Shown: positions 24,667 through 53,218 of the stretch, in pieces
Position numbering within the stretch: position 1 is the stretch's first letter
How the letters are laid out: each line of letters begins with the position of its first letter
DNA from: Candidatus Bathyarchaeota archaeon
Lineage (GTDB): Archaea > Thermoproteota > Bathyarchaeia > Bathyarchaeales > Bathycorpusculaceae
Assembly (NCBI GenBank): GCA_963705145.1
Contig: CAVPJA010000004.1
Location: forward strand, 43,810 to 107,809
Length of the DNA stretch: 64,000 nucleotides
Direction: 5' to 3'
Made by a program: the position numbers and the translations under genes
Notes under the pieces: model-generated
Seen by the model: only the letters and a program-made list of their open reading frames with translations
What the model was told of the DNA's origin: nothing
Database searches by the model: none

Positions 24667-27600
24667 ATGCCAAAGTTTGATTGGATAAAGAAAGTTATGG
24701 TTCTTGGTAGCGGCGCCATTAAAATTGGGGAAGCAGCTGAATTCGATTATTCAGGTAGCCAATGTCTTAAAGCTCTGCGAGAAGAAGGCATTGAGACTGT
24801 TCTAATTAACCCTAACATTGCAACTATTCAGACTGACCCTAGGCTTTCAGGTAAAGTTTACCTTCTCCCAGTTACCCCAGAGTTTGTAGAGAAAGTTATC
24901 GAGAAAGAGCGTCCAGACGGCATTCTGCTTGGTTTCGGCGGGCAAACAGCTTTAAACTGTGGTTTAGAACTGGAAAAAACAGGTATCCTCCAAAAATACA
25001 ATGTTAAAGTTTTAGGTACACCTGTAAAAGCTATCGAAGACACTGGTGACCGTGAACGTTTTCGCCAAGCAATGCTTGAAGCTGGCGTTCCACCTCTAGA
25101 AAGCAAATCGGCGACAACCGTTAAGTACGCTTTGGAAGTTGCCGATGAAATCGGTTATCCTGTCATCGTTCGAGTAGCTTACACTTTAGGTGGAAAAGGT
25201 TCAGGCGTAGCCCACAACGTTTCTGAATTAAAAGAAATCGCGACCCGCGGAATAGCTCAGAGTCGAATCGGCCAAATCCTAATTGAAGAATACGTTGGGC
25301 ACTGGAAAGAAGTCGAATACGAAGTCATGCGTGACTACGCAGACAACTGCTTAACGGTCTGCAACATGGAAAACTTCGATCCCATGGGCGTCCACACAGG
25401 AGACTCAATTGTAGTAGCTCCGTCTCAAACCATGACGAACCGTGAGTACCACCTAATCCGCTCAATCTCCATAAACGCAATCCGCCACTTGGGTATCGTT
25501 GGCGAATGCAACATTCAATGGGCACTCAACACTCAATCCGAGGAATGCCGCGTTATAGAAGTTAACTCACGTATGTCCCGCAGTTCCGCGTTAGCAAGCA
25601 AAGTTACAGGGTATCCCCTAGCTTACATAGCCACCAAACTCACATTGGGATACACTCTTCCAGAATTAATTAACAAAGTAACGGAAGTCACTACAGCATG
25701 CTTTGAACCAGCCCTCGACTATATAACCGTCAAAATCCCAAGGTGGGACCTCCAGAAATTCAAGAATGCCGATCGCCATGTCGGTCCGCAGATGCGTTCC
25801 GTAGGAGAAGTTATGGCAATTGGTCGCTGTTTTGAAGAAGCGCTCCAAAAAGCCGTACGCATGTTGGATATAGGAAAGATTGGTTTAGTTTGCAATCCGG
25901 AAGAAGATCGCAGAAATCGAATCAGAAGAGCGAATAAGAGACGAAATCGCAAACCCCACTGACGAACGCCTTTACAAACTTGTTAAAGCCTTAAAACTGG
26001 GCATACCTATCAATGAGATATACCGTTTAAGCGGCGTAGACCCCTTCTTTCTGTATAAAATCCAAAACATAATAGACATGGAAACACAACTCTGCAGCCT
26101 AAACCTAGCAGAAACCTCTGCGCCAGAAACAATCCGTGAGGCAAAACGCATTGGTTTCTCAGATGAACAAATCGCTCAATGCCAAAAAACTGATGAATTC
26201 ACGATTAGGGCATTTAGAAAAGGCGCAAATATTCTTCCCGTTATAAAACAGATTGACACGTTGGCAGCGGAATGGCCTGCAAAAACCAACTATCTCTACC
26301 TAACCTACGGCGGAGATGAGGACGATATAGAATTATCCAGCAACCCGTCCAAAGTTATCGTGCTTGGCGCAGGCGTTTTCCGAATCGGGTCAAGTGTGGA
26401 ATTCGATTGGTGCGGCGTTAACACGATTTGGGCGCTTAAAAAGAACGGCGTAAAAGAAGCTATAATGGTCAACTACAACCCTGAAACCGTCTCCACAGAC
26501 TACGATGTCTCAGACAAACTCTACTTTGAAGAATTATCAATCGAGCGGATTTTGGACATTTACGAGAAAGAAAATCCGTTGGGTGTAATAACCAGCGTCG
26601 GAGGACAAATCCCCAACAATTTAGCTATGCCACTCTCAAAAGCAGGCGTAAATCTCTTGGGCACTTCAGCGGAGAACGTGGATTTGGCTGAAGACCGATC
26701 AAAATTTAGTGCTCTTCTAGATCAACTTGGCATTTGCCAGCCCAGCTGGAGCAAACTCTTATCGATTGATGATGCAAAACGCTTCGCTCAAAAAATAGGG
26801 TACCCTGTTCTTGTTAGACCCAGTTATGTGCTGTCGGGTTCAGCTATGCGTGTTGCCTACAACGAGGTATCACTAGAAAACTTTTTGAATTTAGCTGCCA
26901 AAGTTTCGCGCGACCATCCGGTAGTAATCAGTAAATTCATAACTCAAGCCAAAGAAGTCGAAGTAGATGGTGTCTCCGACGGCGAAAACGTATTCATCGG
27001 CGCCATAATGGAGCATGTGGAGAACGCTGGTGTCCACAGTGGCGACGCAACCATGACTATTCCCCCTCAAGCACTAAAGATTGAGGTTCAAAAGAAAATC
27101 GAAGAGTGCACCCAAAGTATAGTGAAAGCATTGCAAATTCACGGACCATACAACATACAGTACCTCGTCAAAGACGATGTTGTCAACGTTATCGAATGCA
27201 ACCTAAGAGCCTCGCGTTCCATGCCCTTTGTTAGCAAAACTCGGGGCATAAACATGATTGAGTTGGCGACTTTGGCGATGCTGGGCAAAAAAATCAACGG
27301 AGTCAAACTCTCCCCAATGACTGTTGCACCTCATGTCGGTGTGAAGGTTCCGCAGTTTAGCTTTATGCGATTAAGCGGAGCTGACCCAGTTTTGGGCGTG
27401 GAAATGCTTAGTACTGGAGAGGTAGCGTGTCTTGGGGAAAACTTTTCGGATGCCTTCTCGAAGGCGTTGCAGGCTGCCGAATTCACGATTCCTCCCAAAG
27501 ATGGCAAAGTGTTCATAAGCGTCGGCGGCGATGAAGCCCGAAAGGCGCGTGTTGTGCCGATTGCCAAAGCACTTGCTGAAATGGGCTTTAAAATCTACGC

Positions 27601-27946
27601 AACTCAACACACAGCCGACGTGCTAAACGCCCACGGAGTAACCGCCACCGTACTATACAAGGTCAAGGACGCTCAAGTTAGCCCCAACATAATGGATTAT
27701 TTGCAGGAGCGCAAAATCGACCTAGTAATAAACGTGCCAATGGCTAACAGACACTCAAGCATCTCCGACATCCTAACCGACGGCTACATCATACGGCGCC
27801 AAGCAGTAGAATTCAACATCCCAGTCATCACTAACCTGCAACTCGCGGTGGCGCTAGTGGAAGTGCTCAAGCAGAAAGGACAAAACGGCAATTCCATTCG
27901 CTCATTAAACGAGTACATGGACGACTTACCTTGGAAACAATGGTAA
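24667..27946 (+). CDS. carB: Carbamoyl-phosphate synthase large subunit; +1 frameshift near 25899-25909
   Basis: [22 protein letters not shown]. The second frame resumes with NPTDERLY well before ATG 26078, then a second ATP-grasp and an MGS domain. Confidence 0.92.
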
Positions 27947-30823: not shown

Positions 30824-30838
30824 CGAAACGCTTATATT
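30824..30838 (+). promoter_or_regulatory. BRE/TATA promoter of the aromatic amino-acid operon
   Basis: CGAAAC followed by CTTATATT, ~180 nt upstream of the first enzyme gene. Confidence 0.55.
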
Positions 30839-30873
30839 TTTTGGGATATGACTGATTGAACAGGTTCGAAGCA

Positions 30874-30960
30874 ATGTCCAATTCCAAAAACAAAAACGAC
30901 GGCAACGTATCACCGTTCCTTAGCTTCGACTACTATTTTTATTATTACCATTTTCCTTAA
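30874..30960 (+). CDS. Putative Tyr/Phe-rich leader peptide MSNSKNKNDGNVSPFLSFDYYFYYYHFP
   Basis: 28-codon ORF with 5 Tyr + 4 Phe codons in the last 14, directly upstream of the shikimate/Tyr operon. Confidence 0.8.
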   Translation: MSNSKNKNDGNVSPFLSFDYYFYYYHFP

Positions 30961-30999
30961 GCCCAGAACTGAAAAATTTTTTTGGGAACGGTTCTGGGC
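30961..30999 (+). promoter_or_regulatory. Attenuator-like RNA element: 10-bp hairpin enclosing a U7 tract
   Basis: GCCCAGAACT (30961-70) pairs with GGTTCTGGGC (30990-99); T7 at 30977-83; starts at the base after the leader stop codon. Confidence 0.65.
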
Positions 31000-31017
31000 A
31001 AAACACGGGTGACCTAA

Positions 31018-32253
31018 ATGGCAGATAACAAAAAAATTGTTGTAAAATTCGGCGGCTCTAGCCTTGCCGACCATGAACGTCTCTTAAAAGCGGTAGTTGC
31101 CGTAGTGAACGAATCAAAGAAAGGCACAAAAATCGCTGTTGTAGTTTCCGCCATGGGCAAAACAACCGATGTTCTAATGTCTACAGCCAAAAATACTTCG
31201 AATGGGAAATTAGAGAAACACGATTTAGATGATATTCTCTCAATGGGTGAACGTACCAGCGTACGCATATTTTCAGCTGCCCTAAAAAGCAACGGAGCAA
31301 ACTCATGCTATTTTGACCCAATAGACTGCAACTGGCCAATAATAACCGATGCAGCTTTTCAAAACGCTAACCCAATCCTCAAAGAATGTGCGAAAAACAT
31401 CAAAGAATGCATCCTGCCAATGGTTGAAAAAGGTACAATACCCGTCATCGCAGGGTTCCTTGGCAAAACCAAAGAAGGTAAAGTAACCACTTTGGGCAGA
31501 GGCGGAAGCGACACTACAGCATTCATTTTAGCGGAAGCGTTAGGTGCGGACCTAGTTGTTTTAGTCACGGATGCAGATGGCATAATGTCTGGTGACCCAA
31601 AAATCATTGCGAACCCGCAGAGACTTAAAGAAATCGACGTTAACACTCTTGTAGGCTTGGCGGATTCAGGAGCCAAGTTTATCCACAGCAAAGCCTTAAA
31701 ATACAAACCCAAAAACATCGATGTTAAAGTCATAAGCAACAAGAATAGCGACTTAAGCAGTGAAGGCACCCTCATCAAAGGTGCATTAATTTCGGAGCTG
31801 GACGCGGAAATAGCTCATCCAACCCCAGTCTCGGAAATAACCGTGATTGGAAAAGGCATCTCCGCAAACCCCCAAGTCATCACCGAAATGGTAGAGAAAG
31901 TAAAGGAAAACTCGATCCTCTTGGGAATGTCAATGAACACTAACTCTATTATTCTCTATGTCCCACAAGAAAAAAACATCGAAACCCTCTTCAACCAAAT
32001 TCACAAAATATCCACAAACAACAAAGAAACCATTGCGATGGCGGTCAAAAAAGATTTGGTGTTCATACAAACTAGCGGTGTGGGCTTAGAAGAAACCCAT
32101 GGCATTATTGGAAGAATAAGCGAAGACCTACGAGTCAATGGAATAAACATCTCAGGTATACTGACTATTACCTCGAGTATCCTGCTGTTTGTAGATTGGA
32201 ATGAGAAAGAAAAAGCATTAAAGTTAATTAAAAACTCACTTAAAACACGTTAA
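31018..32253 (+). CDS. Aspartate kinase, second paralog heading the aromatic operon
   Basis: KFGGSS, VVSAMG, SMGER, GRGGSDTTA, ACT-like C-terminus. Confidence 0.85.
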   Translation: MADNKKIVVKFGGSSLADHERLLKAVVAVVNESKKGTKIAVVVSAMGKTTDVLMSTAKNTSNGKLEKHDLDDILSMGERTSVRIFSAALKSNGANSCYFDPIDCNWPIITDAAFQNANPILKECAKNIKECILPMVEKGTIPVIAGFLGKTKEGKVTTLGRGGSDTTAFILAEALGADLVVLVTDADGIMSGDPKIIANPQRLKEIDVNTLVGLADSGAKFIHSKALKYKPKNIDVKVISNKNSDLSSEGTLIKGALISELDAEIAHPTPVSEITVIGKGISANPQVITEMVEKVKENSILLGMSMNTNSIILYVPQEKNIETLFNQIHKISTNNKETIAMAVKKDLVFIQTSGVGLEETHGIIGRISEDLRVNGINISGILTITSSILLFVDWNEKEKALKLIKNSLKTR

Positions 32254-32264
32254 GGTGGAGAAAG

Positions 32265-33056
32265 ATGAATACAGGAAAAAACCGCAGACTAAGAAGAATC
32301 ATGCAGCAAGATAACCGCACTGTAATCGTGCCTATGGATCATGGCGTCACAATCGGACCCATCCAAGGCATAACTAACATGTATGAAATAACCACTAAAC
32401 TGGTGAAGGGAAACGCAGACGCTATCCTTGTCCACAAAGGCATAGCCAAATGCATCGATACCGGACACGCAGGACTCATAGTTATGTTGTCAGGCATGTC
32501 AAACCTTAGCCCTAACTTAAATGCCAAAGTACAAGTCTGCTCCGTGCAAGAAGCTATACGCATCGGCGCGGACGCAGTCTCTGTGCACGTAAACGTTGGA
32601 GCCCAAGACGAAGACAAAATGCTCCAGAATCTGGGCAAAGTCTCAGAAGAATGTGACCTCTTCGGTCTCCCACTCCTTGCTATGATGTATCCGCGTGGAC
32701 CAAAAATCAAAAACGAGCATTCACCTGAAGTGGTAGCACACGCAGCAAGAATCGGAGCAGAGCTTGGCGCGGACATTATCAAAACCAACTATACAGGCGA
32801 CATAGAAACCTTCAAAACTATAGTTGAAAGCTGCCCCGTTCCAGTGGTCATCGCTGGCGGACCAAAATGCAAATCCACCCAAGAAGTCCTCCAAACAACA
32901 TTTGATTCGCTTAAAGCTGGAGCCGCTGGACTTTCGATTGGACGAAACGTGTTCCAATGCGAAAACCCAACTCAAATTGTCAAAGCACTTTCAGCTATTG
33001 TCCACGAAAACGCGTCGGTGGAGAAAGCGCTTAAGGTTCTCGGTGAAAAGCGTTGA
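32265..33056 (+). CDS. aroA': 2-amino-3,7-dideoxy-D-threo-hept-6-ulosonate (ADH) synthase
   Basis: PMDHG, MYPRG, ELGADIIKT, AGGPK, GRNVFQ (class I aldolase) next to DHQ synthase II. Confidence 0.9.
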   Translation: MNTGKNRRLRRIMQQDNRTVIVPMDHGVTIGPIQGITNMYEITTKLVKGNADAILVHKGIAKCIDTGHAGLIVMLSGMSNLSPNLNAKVQVCSVQEAIRIGADAVSVHVNVGAQDEDKMLQNLGKVSEECDLFGLPLLAMMYPRGPKIKNEHSPEVVAHAARIGAELGADIIKTNYTGDIETFKTIVESCPVPVVIAGGPKCKSTQEVLQTTFDSLKAGAAGLSIGRNVFQCENPTQIVKALSAIVHENASVEKALKVLGEKR

Positions 33057-34093
33057 AGATACTCTGGATAGAAATAGACCCAAAAACTTCGACTCAAGAA
33101 AAAGAGAGTTTACTTAGCCTTTCCAATGAAAACGCGGATGTAATCCTTGAAGGGGACCAAACGAGCAACCGCAACGGCAAACTCGAAATAGTTTTCCTAA
33201 GTGATTTAAACGAGAAAAAGCTTGCCCAACTAAAGAGAGAAGGCAAAAAAACTGCCCTTCGAGTTACCATTCAGGGCAAAGAAGACGAAAACAAAGCCGC
33301 CAAAGCCGCAGACCTCGGCGTTGACTATGTGATAATAAACTGTCTCGACTGGCGAGTGATTCCACTTGAAAACTTGATTGCGAAAGGTAGAGGAAAAAGC
33401 ACCTTAATCGCTGAAGTCACGACCTCTGAAGATGCGAAGGTGGTTTTGGAAGCGCTCGAACTTGGAACTGATGGGGTGCTTATTAAAACTGGAAACCCAA
33501 ACGAACTGGAAAAAACAATCAAACTCATTAAGTCACAAGCCCCAAAAATGGTGATAACACCAGCGAAGATTTTGTCAATTAAGCCCATTGGTTCGGGCGC
33601 CAGAGTTTGCGTTGACACCGTTGACTTGATGGTTCCTGGCGAAGGTATGCTTGTAGGATGTCAATCGGCGGGGTTTTTCCTTGTTGAAGCTGAAGTGAAC
33701 GAGAATCCCTATGTGCAGTCTAGACCTTTCAGGGTTAACGCTGGACCCGCTTCACACTACACCTTAACATCGACGCAGAGTACGCGATACCTCTCGGAAC
33801 TCAAGGCAGGAGACGAAGTTTTAATCGTTAACCGAGAGGGTAAAGTCAGATTAACAAACGTAGGCAGAAGCAAAATTGAGTTCCGACCATTAATTCTCAT
33901 TGAAGCCCAAGCATCGGATACAAAAATAAAAACTATTCTTCAGAATGCCGAAACCATCCGCCTAGTAACTCCGAAAGCATCAAAACCAGTCACAGAACTA
34001 AAGGCAAACGACGAAGTCTTAGTGCATATAGCCGTGAAGGGAGGAAGACACTTCGGCATATCTGTGCCTGAAGAAACGGTGATTGAAAAGTGA
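33053..34093 (+). CDS. aroB': 3-dehydroquinate synthase II
   Basis: DWRVIPLENLIA, RVCVDT, RPFRVNAG, LQNAETIRL, GRHFG. Confidence 0.93.
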   Translation: MKILWIEIDPKTSTQEKESLLSLSNENADVILEGDQTSNRNGKLEIVFLSDLNEKKLAQLKREGKKTALRVTIQGKEDENKAAKAADLGVDYVIINCLDWRVIPLENLIAKGRGKSTLIAEVTTSEDAKVVLEALELGTDGVLIKTGNPNELEKTIKLIKSQAPKMVITPAKILSIKPIGSGARVCVDTVDLMVPGEGMLVGCQSAGFFLVEAEVNENPYVQSRPFRVNAGPASHYTLTSTQSTRYLSELKAGDEVLIVNREGKVRLTNVGRSKIEFRPLILIEAQASDTKIKTILQNAETIRLVTPKASKPVTELKANDEVLVHIAVKGGRHFGISVPEETVIEK

Positions 34094-34773
34094 CCCCGAG
34101 AATCTGTATTTCGATTCTCCCAAAAAACAGCATAGAAGCATTAAACCTCATTGAAAAGGCAGAGAAAGCCAAAGCTGACTTCATAGAAGTAAGGCTTGAC
34201 TGCCTTGAAACCTCCCTCAAGCTATCCGAATTATCAGCAAGCACGAAAGTCCCTTTAATTGCCACCAACAAACTCCAAAGAGAAAAGGGATTTTTTGCTG
34301 GAACAGAATCTGAGCGTCAGCAAACCCTGCTTAAGGCAGCTAAAAGTGGCTTTGAGTACGTTGATATTAATTTGTCAAGTCCAAAATACAAAGAAACTAT
34401 CAGCCAGCTTAAGCTGTTGGGGGCCAAAACCATCGTTTCCTACCACAAGTTCGACGGGGCACTCAACGTTTCAGCGATGGCGGCGGTTCTAGATGAAGAA
34501 CTTGCCAGCGGCGCATTCGTCTGCAAGATTGTGACAACTGCTAAACAGATAGAGGACAACCTGCCTGTTTTGAGTTTTGTTTCTTTTGCTTCCAACAAGG
34601 CTAAGCTGGTTTGTTTCTGCATGGGTGAACACGGCAGGGTTTCGAGGGTTCTCTCACCATTGTTTGGGGCTTTTTTCACTTTTGCCTCACTTGAAGAGGG
34701 TAGTGCAACGGCGGCGGGACAAATGAGCATAAATGAAATGAAGACTGCTTATACTCTGTTGAGGAATAAATGA
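34090..34773 (+). CDS. aroD: Type I 3-dehydroquinate dehydratase
   Basis: IEVRLD, VSYH, CKIV, MGEHGRVSR, AAGQ. Confidence 0.9.
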   Translation: MTPRICISILPKNSIEALNLIEKAEKAKADFIEVRLDCLETSLKLSELSASTKVPLIATNKLQREKGFFAGTESERQQTLLKAAKSGFEYVDINLSSPKYKETISQLKLLGAKTIVSYHKFDGALNVSAMAAVLDEELASGAFVCKIVTTAKQIEDNLPVLSFVSFASNKAKLVCFCMGEHGRVSRVLSPLFGAFFTFASLEEGSATAAGQMSINEMKTAYTLLRNK

Positions 34774-34774
34774 T

Positions 34775-35632
34775 ATGGGTATATCTGGAAAAACAAAGGT
34801 ATGCGGTGTCATCGGGGACCCAATAGAGCACACATTAAGCCCAATCATGCACAACGCAGCATTCAACGCCCTAAATCTCGACTACGTGTTTTTAGCTTTC
34901 AAGGTGAAGCCTGCGGAAGTTGAAAACGCAGTGAACGGCATGCGAGCCCTAAACATCCGTGGCTTAAACGTAACAATGCCGCATAAAACTCCAGTCTTAA
35001 AATTTCTAGATAGGACCGACTTATCAGCTCAAATCATAAACTCAGTAAACACCATCTTAAACAGGGATAACAAACTCTTCGGCTTCAACACAGACGGAGT
35101 CGGTGCATTGAAAGCTCTCAGAGAAAACGGGGTGGAATTGAAGGGGCGAAAGGTTCTGTTGTTGGGTGCAGGAGGTGCGGCTAGAGCCATAGCTTACACG
35201 ATGGCTAAAGAAGCTGACGAGTTGGCCGTGTTGAATCGTTCCCTAAAACCAGCTCAAGAATTAGCCAAACTCCTTGAGAAGACCGCAAACAAAAAAATTG
35301 TTTCAGGCTCACTTTCGCCGAAAGAAATCGAGCAAAACCTGCAAGACTCAGACGTTTTAATTAATGCTACATCAGTGGGAATGAAACCGAAAACTGAGGA
35401 AACCCCAGTAGCGTCTAAACTGTTGCGCCCAAACTTAGCTGTAATGGACATAGTCTATAACCCAATTGAAACTAAACTGGCTAAAGACGCGAAGGCGGCA
35501 GGTGCGAAAGTGGTTAGTGGGGTTGAGATGTTGATTTATCAGGGTGCGGCGTCGTTTGAGATTTGGACGGGTAAGTCTGCGCCTGTTGATGTTATGAGGC
35601 AGGCCGCGCTCAATCATTTATCGAAGGTGTAA
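34775..35632 (+). CDS. aroE: Shikimate dehydrogenase
   Basis: HTLSPIMHN, NVTMPHK, NTDG, GAGGAA, MLIYQG. Confidence 0.95.
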   Translation: MGISGKTKVCGVIGDPIEHTLSPIMHNAAFNALNLDYVFLAFKVKPAEVENAVNGMRALNIRGLNVTMPHKTPVLKFLDRTDLSAQIINSVNTILNRDNKLFGFNTDGVGALKALRENGVELKGRKVLLLGAGGAARAIAYTMAKEADELAVLNRSLKPAQELAKLLEKTANKKIVSGSLSPKEIEQNLQDSDVLINATSVGMKPKTEETPVASKLLRPNLAVMDIVYNPIETKLAKDAKAAGAKVVSGVEMLIYQGAASFEIWTGKSAPVDVMRQAALNHLSKV

Positions 35633-35634
35633 AC

Positions 35635-36504
35635 TTGACGGGTAAAGCGGTGGCTATTGCTCATGGGGCAACAACAATCGTTAACGCAATTGCGTTGGGG
35701 AAGGGTGCTGCGTTTGGGATTGATTTGTGGACTAGAGCTGAAGTTAACTTAACCGATGAATCAGGCGTTATTAGGGCTGAGATAGTTTCTGACCCAAAAG
35801 AAAGCACACTCCTTATAGAAAAAACCGCTGCAAGAGTCCTGCGAAGATTTGGTTTAGAGAAGAGTTTTGGCGTGAAAATAAAAACCATATCTAACATTCC
35901 CATCGCACGAGGGCTTAAGAGCAGTAGTGTAGCCGCAAATGCAACAGCTCTTGCGACTACAGCTGCACTGGGAAAAACCCTTGATGACCTAGAAATCATA
36001 AAGTTGGGTGTTGAAGCAGCTTTTGACGCCAAAGTCACAATCACGGGCGCATTTGATGATGCTTGTGCTTCTTATTTTGGCGGCATAATAATCACTGACA
36101 ATCTAAAAAGAGAAATAATCAAACAATATCCGTTGCGTGAGGATTTAGTTGTGCTCTTCCATGTGCCACCCCAAAAAGCCTACACGATCGACTGCAATGT
36201 AAGTAGGCTTAAAACTCTCAGACCTCTCGTTGAAGTCGCTTTCGAGAAGGCTTTAGACGGCAAAATCTGGGAAGCACTAACTCTTAACGGATTAATTTAC
36301 TCTTCAGCTTCCAACCTCAATACATCAATTGTCATCGACGCATTAGTTGCTGGCGCAGTAGCGGTTGGACTCTGCGGCAAAGGGCCAGCGGTTACGGCTG
36401 TGGTTTCAAAGGATAAAGTTGATTTGGTGAAGACTTCTTTCCAGAAATATGAAGGTGAAATATTGCAGACTCAATTGAACTGTGATAAAGCCAAGGTGCT
36501 CTAA
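35635..36504 (+). CDS. aroK: Archaeal (GHMP) shikimate kinase
   Basis: IPIARGLKSSS, TITGAFDDACAS. Confidence 0.93.
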   Translation: MTGKAVAIAHGATTIVNAIALGKGAAFGIDLWTRAEVNLTDESGVIRAEIVSDPKESTLLIEKTAARVLRRFGLEKSFGVKIKTISNIPIARGLKSSSVAANATALATTAALGKTLDDLEIIKLGVEAAFDAKVTITGAFDDACASYFGGIIITDNLKREIIKQYPLREDLVVLFHVPPQKAYTIDCNVSRLKTLRPLVEVAFEKALDGKIWEALTLNGLIYSSASNLNTSIVIDALVAGAVAVGLCGKGPAVTAVVSKDKVDLVKTSFQKYEGEILQTQLNCDKAKVL

Positions 36505-36507
36505 CCA

Positions 36508-37806
36508 ATGGCGGATGTAATCGTTAAAAAAACTGAGAAGCTGAGCGGTCAAGTTTGCGCACCATCGTCTAAGTCCTACACTCAGAGGATGGTTATTGCC
36601 GCTGCGTTATCAAAGGGAACATCTAAAGTTTTTTTTCCTCTTTTGTCCGAAGACACCGAAGCAACACTACGCGCTGTCATTGCTTTGGGTGCAAAGGTAA
36701 CTGTAACAGACGGCTGCTGGACAATCGAAAGCACTAAGGCGCTCAAAGGCGCAAAAGAACCAATCGACTGCGGCGAATCAGGAGCTACATTGCGTTTCAT
36801 GGTTCCTGTAGCCGCGCTAGCAAAGGAGCCTTCGACTCTATTGTTTAAGGGTTCAATTGAGAAGCGACCTGTGGAACCATTACTATATAGCCTCAATGAA
36901 CTTGGCGCCAAGGTTCATATCGGAAAATTCGGTGATAAAGACGCGGTTTTCGTGGAGGGTGGCGGTATTCTTGGAGGCGAAACCTCCATTCCGGGCAACG
37001 TTAGCTCGCAGTTTATTTCTGGTTTGATGTTTGCCTGCCCAAAAGCTCAAACGGACACCGAAATAATGTTGTCTTCTCCGTTGGAGTCTGAAGGTTACGT
37101 TAAGATGACCGAGGCTGTTCTTGTTGATCATGGAGTTAAAGCGTCTGCACATGAAAATCATATTCATATACCAGCAAACCAAACCTACACGCCCGCCGAC
37201 GGTAGGGTTCCAGGCGACTTCTCTTCAGCAGCTTTCCTCGTTGCTGCGGCAGCTATTACCCACTCTAAAGTCCAAATAAACAACCTTGACTATAGTAGTG
37301 TTCAAGGAGACAAAGCGATTATAGGTATCCTAAAACATATGGGTGTCAATGGAAAAGTTTGTCCGGACAGCGTTGAGATTGAAGGTTCAGGCAGTATGTT
37401 CAAAACAGATGAAGTAGATGCCAAACACATTCCTGACCTTGCTCCCGTCATCGCGGTTCTGATGTGTTATGCAAAGGGTACTTCCCACATTTTTGGTGCA
37501 AATAGGCTTCGGCTTAAAGAATCTGACCGTCTCGAATCACTTTACATTGAGTTAAAAAAGATGGGCGCCCAAATCACCATCAATAACGATGGCTTAATCA
37601 TAGAAGGTGGTTCAACTTTACACGGCGCAATAATAGATCCACACAACGACCACCGAATCGCGATGGCTTGTGCAGTTGCCGCTTTAGGCGCAGAAGGACA
37701 AACCACAATCCAAAACGCCGATTGCGTCAGAAAGTCTTATCCGCAGTTCTTCACTCATCTAAGACAAATAGGAGCTGACGTTGTTGGCGGGAAATTCGAT
37801 AGGTAA
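36508..37806 (+). CDS. aroA: EPSP synthase
   Basis: SKSYTQR, ESGATLR, SSQFISG, RLKESDR, DHRIAMA, KSYP. Confidence 0.95.
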   Translation: MADVIVKKTEKLSGQVCAPSSKSYTQRMVIAAALSKGTSKVFFPLLSEDTEATLRAVIALGAKVTVTDGCWTIESTKALKGAKEPIDCGESGATLRFMVPVAALAKEPSTLLFKGSIEKRPVEPLLYSLNELGAKVHIGKFGDKDAVFVEGGGILGGETSIPGNVSSQFISGLMFACPKAQTDTEIMLSSPLESEGYVKMTEAVLVDHGVKASAHENHIHIPANQTYTPADGRVPGDFSSAAFLVAAAAITHSKVQINNLDYSSVQGDKAIIGILKHMGVNGKVCPDSVEIEGSGSMFKTDEVDAKHIPDLAPVIAVLMCYAKGTSHIFGANRLRLKESDRLESLYIELKKMGAQITINNDGLIIEGGSTLHGAIIDPHNDHRIAMACAVAALGAEGQTTIQNADCVRKSYPQFFTHLRQIGADVVGGKFDR

Positions 37807-38887
37807 AGAATTCACAGTTACTACGTTTGGTGAGAGCCATGGCAAAGTGGTTGGTGTAGTTGTGGATGGTTGTCCAGCAGGTTTGCCTCTTTCTGAAGGC
37901 GATTTTCAAGGGGAACTTGACCGCAGGATTCCAGCTGAGCCAAAGATCGTTTCTGCACGTGTAGAGAAAGATGTTATCAAGGTTCTTTCAGGGATTTTCA
38001 ACGGATTTACAACCGGGGCTCCAATAGCCGTGTTGGTCGAGAACAAGGAAACAGACTCCAGCGATTACGAAGCCATGAAAGATCTACCAAGACCCGGGCA
38101 CTCAGATTACCCAGCCCGAATCAAGTATGGTGGCTTAAACGATTATCGAGGCGGAGGACGCTTCTCAGGTAGAGTTACTGTAGCACTAATCATGGCTGGC
38201 ACTATCGCAAAAAAAATACTTAGTCGCTTTGACGTTGATGTGTTGGCTTACACTTCAGCGATTGGGCAAGTTAAGGCTGACAAAAAGTTCAGCACCGACG
38301 AAATACGCAAAAACCGCTATGCCACAGCAACAAGATGCCCCGACATAAGTTGTGGAGAAAAGATGGAGGAAGCTATAGTGAACGCCAAAAAGGAAGGCGA
38401 CAGTCTAGGCGGAATAATCGAGTGTCTAATGCTTGGTATGCCCGTTGGTGTAGGTGAACCATTATTTGACGCATTAGATGCCGATTTGGCTAAATCAGTA
38501 TTTGCGGTTCCAGCGGTTAAGGGCGTCGAGTTTGGCGTGGGTTTTGAAGCTACACAGATGAAGGGGTCGCAGAACAATGACACTTACCAAATAGAAAAGG
38601 GACAAGTTGTGTCTTTAACCGATAATGCCGGAGGCGTTTTAGGCGGTTTATCCAGCGGCATGCCAATCATGATGCGAGTGGCGATTAAACCAACACCTTC
38701 CATCGCGAAGGAACAGAAAACTGTTAACCTTAAAAAAATGGAAAACGCAGTCTTAAGTGTAAAGGGCAGGCATGATCCATGTGTAGTTCCTAAAGCTGTT
38801 CCAGCTATCGAAGCTGCCATTGCAATAACCTTAGTTGACCACATGATCCGAGCGGGTTTTATACCGCGCGTTCTCAAGAGGAAGTAA
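37784..38887 (+). CDS. aroC: Chorismate synthase
   Basis: FGESHG, RPGHSD, GGGRFSGR, KPTPSI, GRHDPC. Confidence 0.95.
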   Translation: MAGNSIGKEFTVTTFGESHGKVVGVVVDGCPAGLPLSEGDFQGELDRRIPAEPKIVSARVEKDVIKVLSGIFNGFTTGAPIAVLVENKETDSSDYEAMKDLPRPGHSDYPARIKYGGLNDYRGGGRFSGRVTVALIMAGTIAKKILSRFDVDVLAYTSAIGQVKADKKFSTDEIRKNRYATATRCPDISCGEKMEEAIVNAKKEGDSLGGIIECLMLGMPVGVGEPLFDALDADLAKSVFAVPAVKGVEFGVGFEATQMKGSQNNDTYQIEKGQVVSLTDNAGGVLGGLSSGMPIMMRVAIKPTPSIAKEQKTVNLKKMENAVLSVKGRHDPCVVPKAVPAIEAAIAITLVDHMIRAGFIPRVLKRK

Positions 38888-38889
38888 AT

Positions 38890-39150
38890 ATGGCTGAAAT
38901 CTCCATGCAGCGAAAAAAAATAGATGAAATTGATGACCAAATCCTGTTGGCACTTTGCGAGAGAGTTAAGGTTTGTAAGGCAATTGGCGATGCCAAAAAA
39001 AGGCAGAGCATGCCAATACGCGATTTATTTAGGGAAAGTGAAGTTTTCAAGCGCATAAAAGAAAAAGCCGTCCAAATAGGCTTAAACGCTGGTCAGGTTG
39101 AAGCGGTTTACCGCGAAATAGTTAATATGTGCAGTGCTGTTCAAGAATAA
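38890..39150 (+). CDS. Monofunctional chorismate mutase (AroQ type)
   Basis: RKKIDEIDDQILLALCER...IGDAK...RE. Confidence 0.88.
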   Translation: MAEISMQRKKIDEIDDQILLALCERVKVCKAIGDAKKRQSMPIRDLFRESEVFKRIKEKAVQIGLNAGQVEAVYREIVNMCSAVQE

Positions 39151-39177
39151 AACGCTCTTAACGGAGACGCCAAAGAT

Positions 39178-40260
39178 ATGCTCTACGAGATAAATGAGAA
39201 AGCTCTTAAACTTGAAAGCGAAGGAAAAAAGATAATTCGATTAAACCTTGGAGATCCAGACTTAGCTACGCCGCCTGAAATAGTGGAAGCCGCGTACGCT
39301 TCTATGAAGGCTGGTAAAACCAAGTATTCTTCTTCTTACGGCGAGTTAAAGCTGCGTCAGAAAATAGCTGAGGCACATGGCGTTCAAACTGAGAACGTGG
39401 TTATTACCCCGGGTTCTAAGTGGGGCATATTCGCCACGATGTTTTTGTTGCTAAAAGACGGCGGCAACGTTATCATTCCTACGCCTTACTGGACAGCTTA
39501 CGATTTAATAGCCAAAAGTCTTGGCGCCAAAACCAAATTGTTGCGAACCGAGCTTGAGAACGATTGGAAAGTCGATTTAGATAAGCTGGAAAAAATAATT
39601 GACAAAGATACACGCATGATCGTGCTCAACAACCCAAACAATCCTACAAGCAAAGTAATGGACGCAGAAACCTTAGACGGCATAGTGGAACTCGCCAACA
39701 AAAAAGGCATTACAATTCTCTCCGACGAAGTCTACGCCACAATAGCATTCACCAAAACCAAAAGCATATTAGACTACGACAAAGACTGCAAACATATTCT
39801 AAGCAACGGCTTTTCCAAAACTTTCACCATGACAGGCTGGCGAATTGGCTACATTATCGCCAACAAGATGCTGGTTGACAAAATAACCAAACTAAACCAA
39901 ATCACCATCAACAACGTCCCCGTTTTCATCCAGGACGCAGCACTCAAAGGCTTAGAACTCCATGCAAAAATCGCTTCAGCCATCAAAGCCAAATACAAAC
40001 TACGTGCCGACATGGCATGCACTAAACTCTCTGCAGCAGGCTTCAAATTTTCCAAACCCGATGCTCCCTTCTATGTGTTTCCCAAACTCGAAGGTTTAGA
40101 CGGAGAAAAATTCACTCTGGACCTTCTAGATAAAGGCGTTGCTGTTGCTCCAGGCACTTCTTTTGGCGATTACCGAGAACACTTCCGCATATCCTTAACT
40201 GCGCCCGACGACCAAATCGAGGCTGGGCTGGATAAAATCTGCGAGGTAGCAGCTAAATGA
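39178..40260 (+). CDS. Class I/II PLP aminotransferase (probable aromatic aminotransferase)
   Basis: NNPNNPT, SDEVY, GFSKTFTMTGWRIG; operon context. Confidence 0.88.
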   Translation: MLYEINEKALKLESEGKKIIRLNLGDPDLATPPEIVEAAYASMKAGKTKYSSSYGELKLRQKIAEAHGVQTENVVITPGSKWGIFATMFLLLKDGGNVIIPTPYWTAYDLIAKSLGAKTKLLRTELENDWKVDLDKLEKIIDKDTRMIVLNNPNNPTSKVMDAETLDGIVELANKKGITILSDEVYATIAFTKTKSILDYDKDCKHILSNGFSKTFTMTGWRIGYIIANKMLVDKITKLNQITINNVPVFIQDAALKGLELHAKIASAIKAKYKLRADMACTKLSAAGFKFSKPDAPFYVFPKLEGLDGEKFTLDLLDKGVAVAPGTSFGDYREHFRISLTAPDDQIEAGLDKICEVAAK

Positions 40261-41129
40261 AGGTTGCCGTAATCGGCGCTGGAAAGATGGGTGTTTGGTT
40301 CGCAAAATTTTTTGAGTCTAAAGGTTACGACGTTATTCTGGCTGACCGTAAGAAAGCGAAGCTTGAAGCGCAAAAAGACTTGCTAGTTGATTTGACAACC
40401 AGTTTCGAGGAAGCCGTCCAAGACGCCGACCAAATTTTCCTTTGCGTATCCATAAACGCCATGGAAGAGGTTGCTAAAGCAATTAGCCCCGCCGTCCACG
40501 AAGGACAAGTAATCATGGATATTTGCTCAATCAAAGAAGCCCCAGTCAAAACGATGCACCAATACCTAAACGGCGCCACGATTTTGGGTACGCACCCAGT
40601 TTTTGGTCCCGGAAGCAAAGGCGTGAAACACAAAGCATACGTCCTAACCCCAACCAATGCCAAAGAGCAAGAGTTCGCTGAGCAATTCAAGCAGTGGCTG
40701 GAAAAGGAAGAAGCACACGTGTTCATTATGACTCCAAAGAAACACGATGAACTAATGTCAGTCGTGCTGGGGTTGCCGCACTTCCTAGGCTTAGTTGCCT
40801 GCGAAACATTGCTGGAACAAGTGAATTTGTCTGAAACAAAAAAAGTAGCTGGCACCACCTATCGAATGCTGTTCACCTTAGCTGAAGCGACGGCGCTGGA
40901 AACCCCAGATCTATACGCAAGCGTACAAACGAATTTGGCTAACTTAGGCGAAATCGAGGATTTGTTTATGGCTAAAGCCCAAGAATTGCTTACCTTAATC
41001 AAAAACAAAGACCAAAAAGCAATAGTCGAACGATTGGAACAACTAAAAAAGAAGCTTGCGGCTGCTGACAGCGACTTCGCCGACTCTTACGACGTCATGT
41101 ATAAAATGCTAGAATCAACAGAGAAATAA
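40257..41129 (+). CDS. tyrA: Prephenate dehydrogenase
   Basis: GAGKMG, DICSIK, THPVFGP, HDELM. Confidence 0.92.
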   Translation: MKVAVIGAGKMGVWFAKFFESKGYDVILADRKKAKLEAQKDLLVDLTTSFEEAVQDADQIFLCVSINAMEEVAKAISPAVHEGQVIMDICSIKEAPVKTMHQYLNGATILGTHPVFGPGSKGVKHKAYVLTPTNAKEQEFAEQFKQWLEKEEAHVFIMTPKKHDELMSVVLGLPHFLGLVACETLLEQVNLSETKKVAGTTYRMLFTLAEATALETPDLYASVQTNLANLGEIEDLFMAKAQELLTLIKNKDQKAIVERLEQLKKKLAAADSDFADSYDVMYKMLESTEK

Positions 41130-42138: not shown

Positions 42139-42954
42139 TTAGATTGCTTTAGGGTAGGACCCTAAGATTTTGATGAATGTGGTATATTTTTCCAGTGCTT
42201 TGAGTGTTTCGGCGCATTTAGGTTCGGTTCGGTGTCCTTCAAAGTCTAGGTAGAAGTTGTATTCCCATGCAGTTTTTTTGGTTGGTCTGGATTCGATGCG
42301 GGTTAGGTTGATTTTGCGTTTGGCGAATTCTCCCAGTGCGTGGTAGAGTGAGCCTGGTTCGTGTTTGGCTGAGAAGATAATTGAGGTTTTGTCTTTGCTT
42401 GTTACTGGTGAATCCTCTTCAGAGAGTACAAAGAAGCGGGTGTAGTTTTCTTTGTTGTCAGCAATGTCTTTGGCGAGGATTTGCATGCCGTAGATTTCGG
42501 CTGCTCGCTCGCTGGCAATGGCTGCTGCGGACATGAGTTTTTGTTCCTTGATGAGTTTAACGCTTCCAGCCGTATCATAAGCTGGAATCTGTTCGTATTT
42601 TAAGTGTTCCAGAAAGCTTCGGCACTGCGCAAGAGCTTGCGGGTGGGAGTAAACCGTTTTGATTTGATCCAAACTTGCGCCTGGATTAGCTATTAGACAG
42701 TGGGCGATTTTTACTATTACTTCACCGCAGACTTTAAGGTCATAATTGAAGAATAAATCGTAGTTTTGGTTGACGCTGCCTTCAATCGAGTTCTCAACTG
42801 GCACCACACCTGCGTCAACGCCCAGGCGTTTTACGCTTTCAAAAACGTCGCGGAAATCCATGCACGGTTTAACCTGCGTTTTTGAACCAAAGAACTGGTA
42901 AACTGCGCTCTCACTATATGCGCCAGGTTCGCCTTGGAAGGCTACATGTGTCAC
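42139..42954 (-). CDS. pheA: Prephenate dehydratase (PDT + ACT)
   Basis: GAYSE, PVENS, SHPQA, NYTRF, IESRP. Confidence 0.95.
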   Translation of the reverse strand: MTHVAFQGEPGAYSESAVYQFFGSKTQVKPCMDFRDVFESVKRLGVDAGVVPVENSIEGSVNQNYDLFFNYDLKVCGEVIVKIAHCLIANPGASLDQIKTVYSHPQALAQCRSFLEHLKYEQIPAYDTAGSVKLIKEQKLMSAAAIASERAAEIYGMQILAKDIADNKENYTRFFVLSEEDSPVTSKDKTSIIFSAKHEPGSLYHALGEFAKRKINLTRIESRPTKKTAWEYNFYLDFEGHRTEPKCAETLKALEKYTTFIKILGSYPKAI

Positions 42955-44473
42955 TTTTTGTTTCCCTGCTTATGGTTCTTAATCAAGAGCTTGTTTATAC
43001 CATTTATCATTGCTTCCACGCTTGCCATAACAATGTCTTCTCGTGCTGCTCGTGCGGAGACGATATTGCCTTTTTCGTCTTCGACTTTTATGATGACTTC
43101 GGCGACTGCATTTGACCCTCCAGTTATAGCTGCAAGACGGTATTCGCTAAGGCGGATGTTTTCTATGCTGCTGGTCAACTTCTGAATTGCCTTTAAGACT
43201 GCATCTACTGGTCCTACGCCTGTTTCGGCTGCAACGTATTCTTTGCCATTCAAGGTTAGACGCACCGAAGCGGTTGGGATAACTTTGATGCCTGTTACGA
43301 CGGCCATGTCGCATAAGTCAATTATTTTTTCTTCCCCAATCACTTCACCCATTACAGCGGAAGTTAGCGCTATCAAGTCGGCGTCTGTGACCATTTTGCC
43401 TTTGTCACCTAAGTCTTTGACGCGTTGTACGATTTCTTTTAGCTGCTCCTCGGTTGGGTGGATACCGATTTCGTTCAATTCTGCCTTGATACCTCGGGTT
43501 CCCGCCAGTTTGCCAGCTACAAGTTTTCTTGTGCGTCCTACTAATTCTGGGTTTATAGGCTCGAAGGTCAGTGGTTTTTCTGTTACGCCGCGGGTGTGTA
43601 TGCCTGATTCGTGGGCAAACGCGTTCTCTCCAACAATTGCTTTGTTAGCTTGTACATTAATGCCTGTTAATGATGCAACCAGTCGTGAGGTGCTATAGAG
43701 TAAGCGCGTGTTGACGTCTGTTTTGTATTTGTAAATCATGTGCAGTGCCATAACTACTTCTTCGAGTGAAGCGTTGCCTGCACGTTCACCTAAGCCATTA
43801 ACCGCTACGTGTACTTGGTCTGCGCCTGCTTCGACGGCAGCTAAACTGTTGGCAACTGCTAAACCGAAGTCATCGTGACAATGGGTGCTTATTGGAACGT
43901 TAACTATTGTTTTTAGTTCCTCGATTAATTTGGCTGTTGTTTTAGGAATCATGATGCCGACTGTGTCAGGGACATTTAAGCTATCCATGCCTGCGTCTTG
44001 TGCTGCTTTACAAACCTTTTTTAGAAAAGGCATCTCGGAGCGTGTGGCATCCATTGGTGAAAACTCGCATTTTACGCCGTGTTTCTTCACGTATGAAATG
44101 GAATCCACCGTTGCAGCCAGCACTTGTTCAGGAGTTAAGTTAACCGCGTATTTCATTTGAACAGGTGAGGTTGGGATGAAAACGTGAATTAAATCAACTT
44201 CGCAATCCAAAGCTGCATCGATGTCGCCCTAGTTGCACGGGAAAGTGCGCAGACTTCTGAGGTTAAACCTGCCTTAGCAATGTCTCGGACAATTTTTTTT
44301 TCGCCCTCTGACGAACTTGGAAAACCCGCTTCAATGGTGTCAACGCCCAACTTGCTTAGTTGACAGGCAATCTCCATCTTATCGTCTGCAGTTAAAGAAA
44401 CTCCAGGGGTTTGTTCCCCATCTCTTAATGTTGTGTCAAAAATTCGGATTCTTCTTGAGGTTTTATTTGTCAT
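42951..44473 (-). CDS. leuA: 2-isopropylmalate synthase; one base missing near 44227-44231
   Basis: DTTLRDGEQ in the first frame; NVPDTVG, HCHDD, GERAGN, HESGIH and the regulatory domain in the second. Adding one base restores ...T(R/K)GDIDAAL. Confidence 0.88.
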
Positions 44474-51621: not shown

Positions 51622-51706
51622 ACTTATGCCTCTGTGTAATCTTAACTCACCAATAATTTTATATTTAAGCTTGCCCCCTTGAAAATGAATGTGATTTAAA
51701 TGGGGT

Positions 51707-53218
51707 ATTGCTTTATTCAACCGCTTCCCTGAGTCTGTAAGATTTTTAGACACCACCCTGCGTGATGGTGAACAAACACCTGGAGTATCTCTTGTTCCTG
51801 AAAATAAGTTACGCATTGCTCAGCGTCTTGACGAGCTTGGCGTAGATGTTATCGAAGCTGGGTTCGCGGCGGTTTCTGATGGCGAAATGGAATCCATAAA
51901 ACTCATTGCAAAGCAGGGTTTGAGAGCGCATATTTTCAGTGCTGCAAGAGGCACCAAAAATGACATTGACGCTGTTTTGAAGAGCGGTTGTTCGGGTGTG
52001 TCCATGATCATACCCACTTCAGATTTACATATAGAATGCAAACTGCACAAGACAAGGGAGCAAATACTGAAAACCACTGAAGAAGTTGTTGGCTACGCTA
52101 AAGCCCAAGGTTTGAAGGTAGAGCTTTTGGCTGAAGATGCTACACGCTCAGACTTTGAGTATTTAACCCAAGTTTTCCAAGTTGCTACAGATGTGGGCGT
52201 TGATAGAGTAGTACCCTGCGACACTGTCGGAATCTTAACACCTGAGCGTGCTGCAGAGTTCTTCTCGAACCTCAAAAAATCCCTCAAAGTTCCAATAGCT
52301 GTGCATTGTCATAACGACTTTGGTATGGCAGTTGCCAACACAGTTGCCGCTTTAAGCTCAGGCGCTGACGAATGCCACGCTACAATAAACGGTTTAGGTG
52401 AACGTGCAGGCAACGCGGCACTCGAAGAAATAGTGATAACACTTCGCTCGCTCTACAAGCTGGACTTGAAAATTAAAACCGAACTCCTCTACAGCACCTC
52501 GCAGTTGGTTTCACGATTAACGGGCGTCTACACACAGCCTAACAAGGCAGTCGTCGGAGAAAACGCATTCACACACGAATCAGGCATTCACACTCAAGGC
52601 GTACTTGCAAATCCTTTGACTTATGAGCCGATTGCCCCTGAACTTGTAGGATGCACAAGACGCATTGCCCCAGGAAAACACTCAGGATCCAACGCAATAC
52701 GAGCAGACTTAGCTAACATGGGACTAAAACCAACAGAAACACAGTTCAAAGGTATCTTAAAACGAATCAAGGAATTAGGTGACAAAGGCAAAACAGTCAT
52801 GGATGCAGATGTGCTGGCTATCGCTGAAGCTTTCATGGGGTTGGACAAAACTAAACCTATACAGCTTGAAGAAATGACGTACGTTGGGGGCGATAAAGTT
52901 ACTTCGACCGCTTCAGTGCGCTTGAAACTAAACGGTAAGGTCGTTTGGGGCGCTGCAGTGGGTGTTGGACCAGTTGACGCCACGATAAACGCGGTTAAAC
53001 ACGCTATTGCAGAAACCGAGCCCATCACGCTTGAGCAATACAATGTTAAAGCTATTACTGGCGGAACAGATGCGATGGTTGAGGTCGTAGTGCATATGCG
53101 AAAAGGCGATCGAAAAGTCACTGCAATGGGAGTCCGCGAGGACATCGTTAAAGCAAGTATGGAAGCAGTCCTAAGCGGTATGAACGTGCTGACAACCGAC
53201 TACAGCAATAAAACGTAA
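51707..53218 (+). CDS. cimA: (R)-citramalate synthase / IPMS paralog (start codon non-canonical or frameshifted)
   Basis: Frame open from 51695 carries [12 protein letters not shown] upstream of the first ATG; [25 protein letters not shown]. Confidence 0.75.

Follow-up and report, generated by a model that had tools for sequence, protein, structure and literature searches.

A reading frame of 28 codons that precedes the aromatic amino-acid operon of a Candidatus Bathyarchaeota archaeon very probably acts as a translated sensor of phenylalanine and tyrosine, as judged by the comparison of its frame and codons among relatives. Together with the hairpin that follows its stop codon, it may form a Phe/Tyr gauge that is read by the ribosome, in which the hairpin is permissive and the output is termination by FttA, and we give this combined reading a probability of about one half. 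Control of read-through into the operon is the likeliest outcome. The case bears on the question of whether attenuation by ribosomes takes place in archaea, organisms in which transcription and translation are coupled and transcripts end in a manner unlike that of bacteria. Positions given here without a contig label refer to the window, that is the whole stretch of 64,000 nucleotides that was analysed.

The operon comprises eleven genes on the + strand (31018-41129, identified by gene matches): aspartate kinase (AK), ADH synthase (aroA'), DHQ synthase II, aroD, aroE, an archaeal shikimate kinase, EPSP synthase, chorismate synthase, chorismate mutase, an aminotransferase and prephenate dehydrogenase. 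These constitute the archaeal aroA'/aroB' route to chorismate, prephenate and tyrosine with AK at the head, a position that is understandable since aspartate semialdehyde is one of the substrates of the aroA' route. A sequence-only reading of this DNA had described an eleven-gene aromatic operon devoid of trp genes downstream of a promoter, and both observations hold. No trp gene was found among the eleven, the trp cluster being located on contig C5 instead, and a BRE-like word (30824-30830, +) and a TATA-like word (30831-30838, +) ahead of the leader are both kept in A1, an alignment of 54 loci. By the usual archaeal spacing, transcription would start near 30860. A Shine-Dalgarno-like (SD) word of the AK gene, resembling the familiar anti-SD complement, is found at 31007-31012 (+), 8 nt after the hairpin.

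The leader ORF (30874-30960, +) translates as MSNSKNKNDGNVSPFLSFDYYFYYYHFP followed by the stop codon. The translation agrees in every respect with the composition first claimed for it: 28 codons, Phe or Tyr at nine of the last 14, a YYFYYY run in which TAC, TAT and TTT are mixed, and no Trp codon. The sensor tract proper (30916-30954, +) holds these nine among 13 codons and stops one codon short of the stop codon. When the short ATG starts upstream of long ORFs were scored throughout the genome (n=1076), this leader had the highest Phe/Tyr count (9 of 14) and the runner-up had 7. The same test gave two Phe/Tyr at most, and hence no such leader, for the genome's second AK gene and for eight paralogous AK loci of relatives. 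ORFs of the leader type are below the size accepted by gene callers and are therefore missing from annotations. RNA contigs from four runs (shares 0.05-0.15) touch AK and none spans the leader, a kind of gap that is uninformative.

An AK orthologue was found in 35 of 36 genomes of the same genus (G020 is without one). These 35 loci, six more and our own make 42, and in all 42 an ATG ORF of 24-29 codons ends in a Phe/Tyr tract. With 13 loci of other genera added, the leader is present in 55 of 55 scored loci of the family. The check on related genomes that the sequence-only reading had proposed thus found the short ORF, the Phe/Tyr enrichment and the synonymous variation all conserved. An overlapping set of 80 named genomes yielded 77 leaders, the other three loci being without usable upstream DNA. 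Across the class, 110 loci with AK as the first gene were assembled, and of these 76 have the tract design, seven have too little upstream DNA and 27, belonging to the four families f17, f26, f31 and f35, are without it. The tract leader occurs in 14 families, our own and 13 more of the class, with unrelated sequences. Among 20 regions from outside the class (18 from other classes), where the gene next to AK is asd-like by eye, similar leaders were found in f57, f46, f44 and f52 and none in f51 and f70. In the f44 loci L358-L360 the leader ends some 20-25 nt before AK and no post-stop hairpin follows it, and L358 and L360 carry an anti-SD word within the leader ORF. The survey left out eight family-f1 aroA' loci without AK directly upstream, and leaders and start codons outside f1 were chosen by eye. 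The motif finder missed 10 of 120 AK-containing loci, of which three were restored and seven are unscored, including L063, L079 and L127, which do show the tract. The placement of the sensor codons is constant: the last Phe/Tyr codon lies 0-3 codons ahead of the stop in 91 of 91 leaders, and Phe/Tyr make up a mean of 7.7 of the last 12 codons versus 6% in the remainder of the ORF.

The reading frame and the choice of codons carry the marks of selection. In 51 of 51 loci the first ATG past a conserved 5'UTR anchor shares the frame of the tract, while the distances from anchor to stop fall into all three classes modulo 3. The leader's N-terminal part is different in 51 of 52 loci. Its frame 0 is stop-free by selection; each of the other two frames contains stops, one in 16 and one in 32 of the 52 loci, the shuffled mean being 30. 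Within the tract all 349 in-frame TT-/TA- triplets specify Phe or Tyr and none is TTA or TTG; the +2 frame of the same DNA contains 148 TTA. Pairwise exchanges among kin, which are not independent of each other, amount to 228 synonymous and 178 Phe-Tyr changes. The frame and codon counts taken together argue for selection on the frame and on the tRNAs used, and not on peptide sequence or T-richness. The claim that the ribosome senses Phe/Tyr here and thereby controls read-through is strongly supported in its sensing half, both by these comparative tests and by the product-matched ilv, his and trp leaders described below, while control of read-through would be its likeliest output.

Two explanations in which codons are not what is read can be weighed against the same counts. 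The Ser-Phe-Asp stretch of the leader is conserved at the base level and the 5'UTR contains the palindrome TTCGAA, as might be expected if the ORF were incidental to a T/A-rich DNA, or to an RNA or DNA site for a protein, that happens to read Phe/Tyr. Such a site would not account for an in-frame ATG at every locus or for the lack of TTA/TTG in frame, nor for the unrelated sequences of other families that retain both the ORF and the aromatic tract, and the one-sided changes in both RNA helices are nearly all G-U compatible on the + strand; we regard this explanation as extremely improbable. It is also very unlikely that the peptide itself acts, be it as a TnaC-like arrest peptide sensing free Phe/Tyr in the exit tunnel or as a small trans-acting protein. 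N-terminal parts that nearly all differ, Phe and Tyr that exchange freely, a variable last residue (Pro, Asn, Thr, Ser, Tyr and others) and the absence of any NCBIfam match for the leader peptide speak against it, although in the genus a Ser-Phe-Asp/Glu/Gly motif is found repeatedly, as is a Phe-Pro-stop ending. The constancy of Ser-Phe-Asp is explained by these codons forming one strand of an RNA helix.

This helix, 1:2, has its 5'UTR strand just before the leader start codon (30863-30872, +, 7 counted pairs, with 30866-30872 as the paired bases) and its in-ORF strand at the Ser-Phe-Asp codons (30923-30929, +, from folding and alignment). The post-stop hairpin begins with the first base after the stop. 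Neither of these two helices figures in the sequence-only reading. Its purine-rich 5' arm (30961-30971, +, folding and alignment) is separated from the 3' arm (30989-30999, +, alignment) by a loop containing U7 (30977-30983, +), a candidate aCPSF1/FttA recognition or pause site. In the 54 sequences of A1, 99.7% of cells in helix 1:2 are paired, with changes that are almost all G-U compatible, and in the hairpin 97.2% are paired and two pairs are changed on both sides. For both helices the value is 98.2% against 23-49% in slid controls, and changes on two sides were found in 10 cells versus 0 of 500 shuffles, the tested structure being derived from the same sequences. The stability of the whole-leader fold is unremarkable (z -1.83, equalled by 10 of 200 shuffles). 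As far as sequence comparison can establish them, the ORF, its frame and codon choice and both helices with their positions are secure.

Beyond the family, the strongest stack begins between -3 and +6 nt from the stop in 78 of 91 loci when searched in an unbiased window; by family group, most loci conform in 13 of the 20 and not in the other seven. In 13 of 14 families each hairpin arm has a better match in its own partner than in a swapped one, and in all 14 the 3' arm is U-richer than the 5' arm. The 5'UTR prefers its own partner over a swapped one at the start of the tract in 9 of 14 families and at the hairpin 5' arm in 10 of 14, and does so strongly at the 5' arm in f5, f7 and f12. A mutually exclusive antiterminator helix, as in a 2:3/3:4 alternative, is not conserved within our family; elsewhere the 5' arm has competitors in the 5'UTR (f5, f7, f12) or in the tail of the ORF (f57). 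At L344, L345 and L378 of f57 and at L361 of f52 the last leader codons reach over the stop codon to pair with the post-stop arm, and in f57 this pairing is an alternative to a longer hairpin, which comes nearest to the textbook two-state attenuator.

At this locus the hairpin is not a bacterial terminator. A hairpin with a U-tract behind it, the mark of an intrinsic terminator, was not found on the + strand; the loop holds the U7, and downstream of the hairpin come A-rich sequence, as elsewhere in the genus, and then the AK SD. U-rich tails are present in f7, f12 and f14. A run of four or more U between stop and AK start is present in 48 of 55 family loci and missing in seven, and no sampled locus of f5, f37, f57, f46, f32 and f34 has one. 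The pheL/trpL design proposed at the outset is therefore borne out by the product-codon leader and not by a hairpin/U-tract terminator or a conserved 2:3/3:4 alternative in the family.

In the mechanism that we infer, the leader is translated in vivo, the ribosome stalls on codons for uncharged tRNA-Phe/Tyr, the sign of the hairpin is permissive and FttA is the effector. Delay of the ribosome on the Phe/Tyr codons would permit closure of the hairpin, with read-through and AK initiation as the result, while a fast ribosome arriving at the stop would cover the 5' arm and leave U-rich RNA exposed to termination by aCPSF1/FttA. The post-stop hairpin would thus take the place of the antiterminator known from the bacterial design. 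Behind the passing ribosome, helix 1:2 would likely form again at the leader start, and could thereby limit re-initiation or pause the polymerase. The bare U-rich tract could itself act as an FttA site after ribosome release. The archaeal ribosome protects 15-16 nt counted from the P-site codon (PMC7261190), from which it follows that a ribosome with the stop codon in its A site would cover 9-10 nt of the 11-nt arm. By the same footprint geometry, a stall three or more codons earlier leaves the 5' arm free, and a stall on the last Phe/Tyr codon would cover 3-4 nt of it, which counts against the model.

In archaeal termination a hairpin is unnecessary, and U-rich RNA and aCPSF1/FttA can serve (PMC13675443). 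FttA favours U at the cut, with U-rich RNA 9-14 nt upstream and within 36 nt of the 3' end (PMC11616081). At our locus U30992, in combination with U at five of the six positions from -9 to -14, matches this spacing, with contributions of the loop U7 and of U in the 3' arm. The signature is found in 35 of 55 loci versus 1.4 expected, an expectation that comes from mononucleotide shuffles, so that the excess mostly restates the presence of U-tracts. The loci and families that have no run of four U speak against this output. PMC11616081 also sets out a steric model in which a ribosome close to the polymerase may exclude FttA, and a ribosome at the stop may by this model keep FttA out, contrary to the mechanism that we prefer. 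A match to aCPSF1 over the cut-off was present in five of five near-complete relatives and was not found in the genome itself, which is 59% complete. In 14 of 20 family groups, opening the AK SD costs least when the ribosome is stalled; the differences in our family are just 0.3-1.5 kcal/mol and are biased by the amount of RNA left free. With an element of about 190 nt, defined sensor codons and two helices for which natural compensatory variants exist, the leader is portable to a reporter in a tractable archaeon, and it makes the competition between ribosome and aCPSF1/FttA for nascent RNA testable.

The opening of the AK site raises the question of translational attenuation, in which the tract pairs with the AK start region, the hairpin is a scaffold, a stall frees the AK ribosome binding site and transcription is affected via polarity. 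There is precedent for translational attenuation in the mycobacterial poly-Cys leaders (bioRxiv 10.1101/834739). At our locus the free fold has the tract paired with the AK start codon region, and within the family the cost of opening for AK initiation falls from 6.95 kcal/mol in the free RNA to 5.1-5.4 kcal/mol with the ribosome on the middle or last sensor codon. In 34 of 55 loci the SD is costlier to open once the ribosome has been released than while it is stalled. Folding energies favour this mechanism by 1-2 kcal/mol at our locus and in the family. However, the direction of this shift is inconsistent in other families, and pairing between the tract and the AK initiation region was no better with the own partner than with a swapped one (7 and 8 of 14 families). 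These observations make such a mechanism a possibility, albeit an unlikely one. Sequestration of the SD by the 3' arm was considered separately and rejected, since it was better than swapped in just 3 of 14 families, a count for which fixed pairing windows may split adjacent anti-SD words; by eye, such words are seen in f57, f46 and f12.

We also consider it unlikely, to a somewhat greater degree, that the hairpin is negative, as a terminator, a pause or a block of the AK site that is relieved by a stall on the last Phe/Tyr codons or by a +1 slip. The hairpin ends a mean of 18 nt before the AK start in our family, U-rich tails do follow it in f7, f12 and f14, the tract reaches close to the stop throughout, and leaders of a frameshift type are present in the same genome, all of which such a hairpin would accommodate. 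Most sensor codons are nevertheless too far upstream for a ribosome on them to cover the arm, and the sequence after the hairpin is A-rich in the genus. The +1 frame, moreover, reaches the AK start in just 48 of 79 loci (0 of 5 in f7 and 0 of 3 in f37), and the +2 frame in 35 of 79. As the end point of the +1 frame is not fixed, a prfB-like +1 frameshift was rejected as a requirement for the aro leader.

Leader-peptide transcription attenuators are established for E. coli pheL-pheA, trpL, hisL and thrL. The aro leader shares with them a short upstream ORF, a tract of codons for the end product and a biosynthetic operon downstream, as well as helices that overlap the start region and follow the stop. 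It departs from them in the terminator and in the alternative helix discussed above, in that one tract senses two amino acids, and in having an archaeal polymerase and aCPSF1. The leader accordingly works like an attenuator of the pheL type in our proposal but fails on the terminator. A search of the Rfam leader families between 30600 and 31200 returned three sub-threshold chance matches only. The leuA-Halobacteria RNA motif of Rfam appears to be a conserved leader that precedes an amino-acid gene in archaea and may be a partial precedent. The motif was not found by term search or in the main text of PMC5737381. The Methanothermobacter trpY gene, encoding a repressor, is said to be preceded and controlled by a Met-Trp minigene of two codons. 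That minigene is likewise an archaeal upstream ORF with a product codon, and it is not known to have the tract and post-stop hairpin of the aro leader. No archaeal leader-peptide attenuator emerged from our literature search, most subscription papers being outside its reach.

The mycobacterial poly-Cys ORF Ms5788A resembles the aro leader in having product codons at its 3' end, a length of about 29 codons and an intergenic hairpin (bioRxiv 10.1101/834739). Its tract pairs with the downstream SD, whereas the corresponding pairing is weak here and without co-variation across families, and Ms5788A is itself leaderless, whereas the aro leader has a short structured 5'UTR. The Rho-dependent Salmonella corA and thiM leaders, described in PMC13675443, offer another parallel, since access of a termination factor to its loading site is blocked by RNA structure or by a ribosome, as is proposed here for FttA. 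The parallel is incomplete: Rho is a translocase and FttA is a nuclease, and corA and thiM are described there without a product-codon tract.

Other amino-acid operons of the genome have leaders in which the sixth codon is that of the pathway product: Leu for ilvB (plus Val at another site), His for hisG (at two sites), Trp for trpE, and Ile for a citramalate synthase-like gene. The ilv, his, trp and Ile leaders resemble what we take to be +1 sites of the prfB type. The ilv leader (49748-49698, -) upstream of ilvB has 16 codons, MRDRHLHSRDRRVQLL, with two SD-like words before its Leu and Val codons. Of 30 loci examined 29 bear the leader, and in 27 of them its +1 frame stays open until a stop that overlaps the start of ilvB, while its +2 frame does so in none, making the leader a candidate hungry-codon +1 frameshift sensor. 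The his leader (G000:C2:143588, -, L206) has two SD-His sites in successive frames. Of 30 loci examined, 25 matched the pattern, and in 23 of these a ribosome shifting by +1 at both His codons would arrive at hisG, while a single shift would do so in none; on sequence grounds the design is AND-like. At trpE (G000:C5:145786, -, L236) there is no in-frame start and the leader MGNRLW is present, and a Trp leader of this type is conserved in 27 of 28 loci, offset from the TrpE frame by one base. The absence of Trp codons from the aro leader fits with trpE having a Trp-codon leader of its own. At 51700-51732 (+) a 10-codon leader has Ile as its sixth codon, and the downstream leuA/cimA-like gene is at this locus in the +1 frame and apparently has no start codon of its own before the conserved N-terminal motif. 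The product-matched ilv, his and trp leaders provide what appears to be independent support for a sensing role of the aro leader.

The families without the tract do have aromatic codons ahead of the aro operon. In f26 and f35 (L102, L119, L120, L130, L134-L144) SD-like words are followed by single Phe, Tyr or Trp codons and no tract, and the AK frame is open for 49-79 codons upstream in 20 of 21 loci; SD-like words and single Phe/Tyr/Trp codons are also found in f17 and f31 (L103, L105, L118, L126). Comparison of f26 and f35 with the tract families indicates that two unrelated designs place aromatic codons before the same operon, with Trp gauged separately at trpE. One may speculate, at somewhat less than even odds, that this is an attenuator without a terminator hairpin, in which the time of the ribosome's arrival at the stop codon sets whether the hairpin shields the nascent RNA from aCPSF1/FttA, and that it is one half of a lineage-wide system of ribosome sensing by two devices that replaces repressors. 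If true, stall-and-hairpin and the hungry-codon +1 frameshift would be interchangeable devices, even at the aro operon between families. The leader points to a likely mode of regulation of amino-acid synthesis in Bathyarchaeia.

The surroundings of the operon yielded some further observations. The window holds an amino-acid super-cluster (16233-62829) with genes for thr, arg/car and homocysteine synthesis, aro, ilv-leu-pheA and a leuA/cimA-like gene, some of these labels being assigned by eye. The gene for prephenate dehydratase, pheA (42139-42954, -), is outside the aro operon as the last gene of the opposite-strand ilv-leu operon, and the Phe-specific step would consequently be under the branched-chain leader. 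The leuA gene is split by a frameshift at 44189-44210 (-), is open in five of five relatives (512-540 aa) and is likely affected by an assembly error, and carB (24667-27946) is likewise spread over two ORFs. A 25-codon Thr/Ile-rich ORF is located at G000:C5:237626-237549 (-), ahead of another gene.
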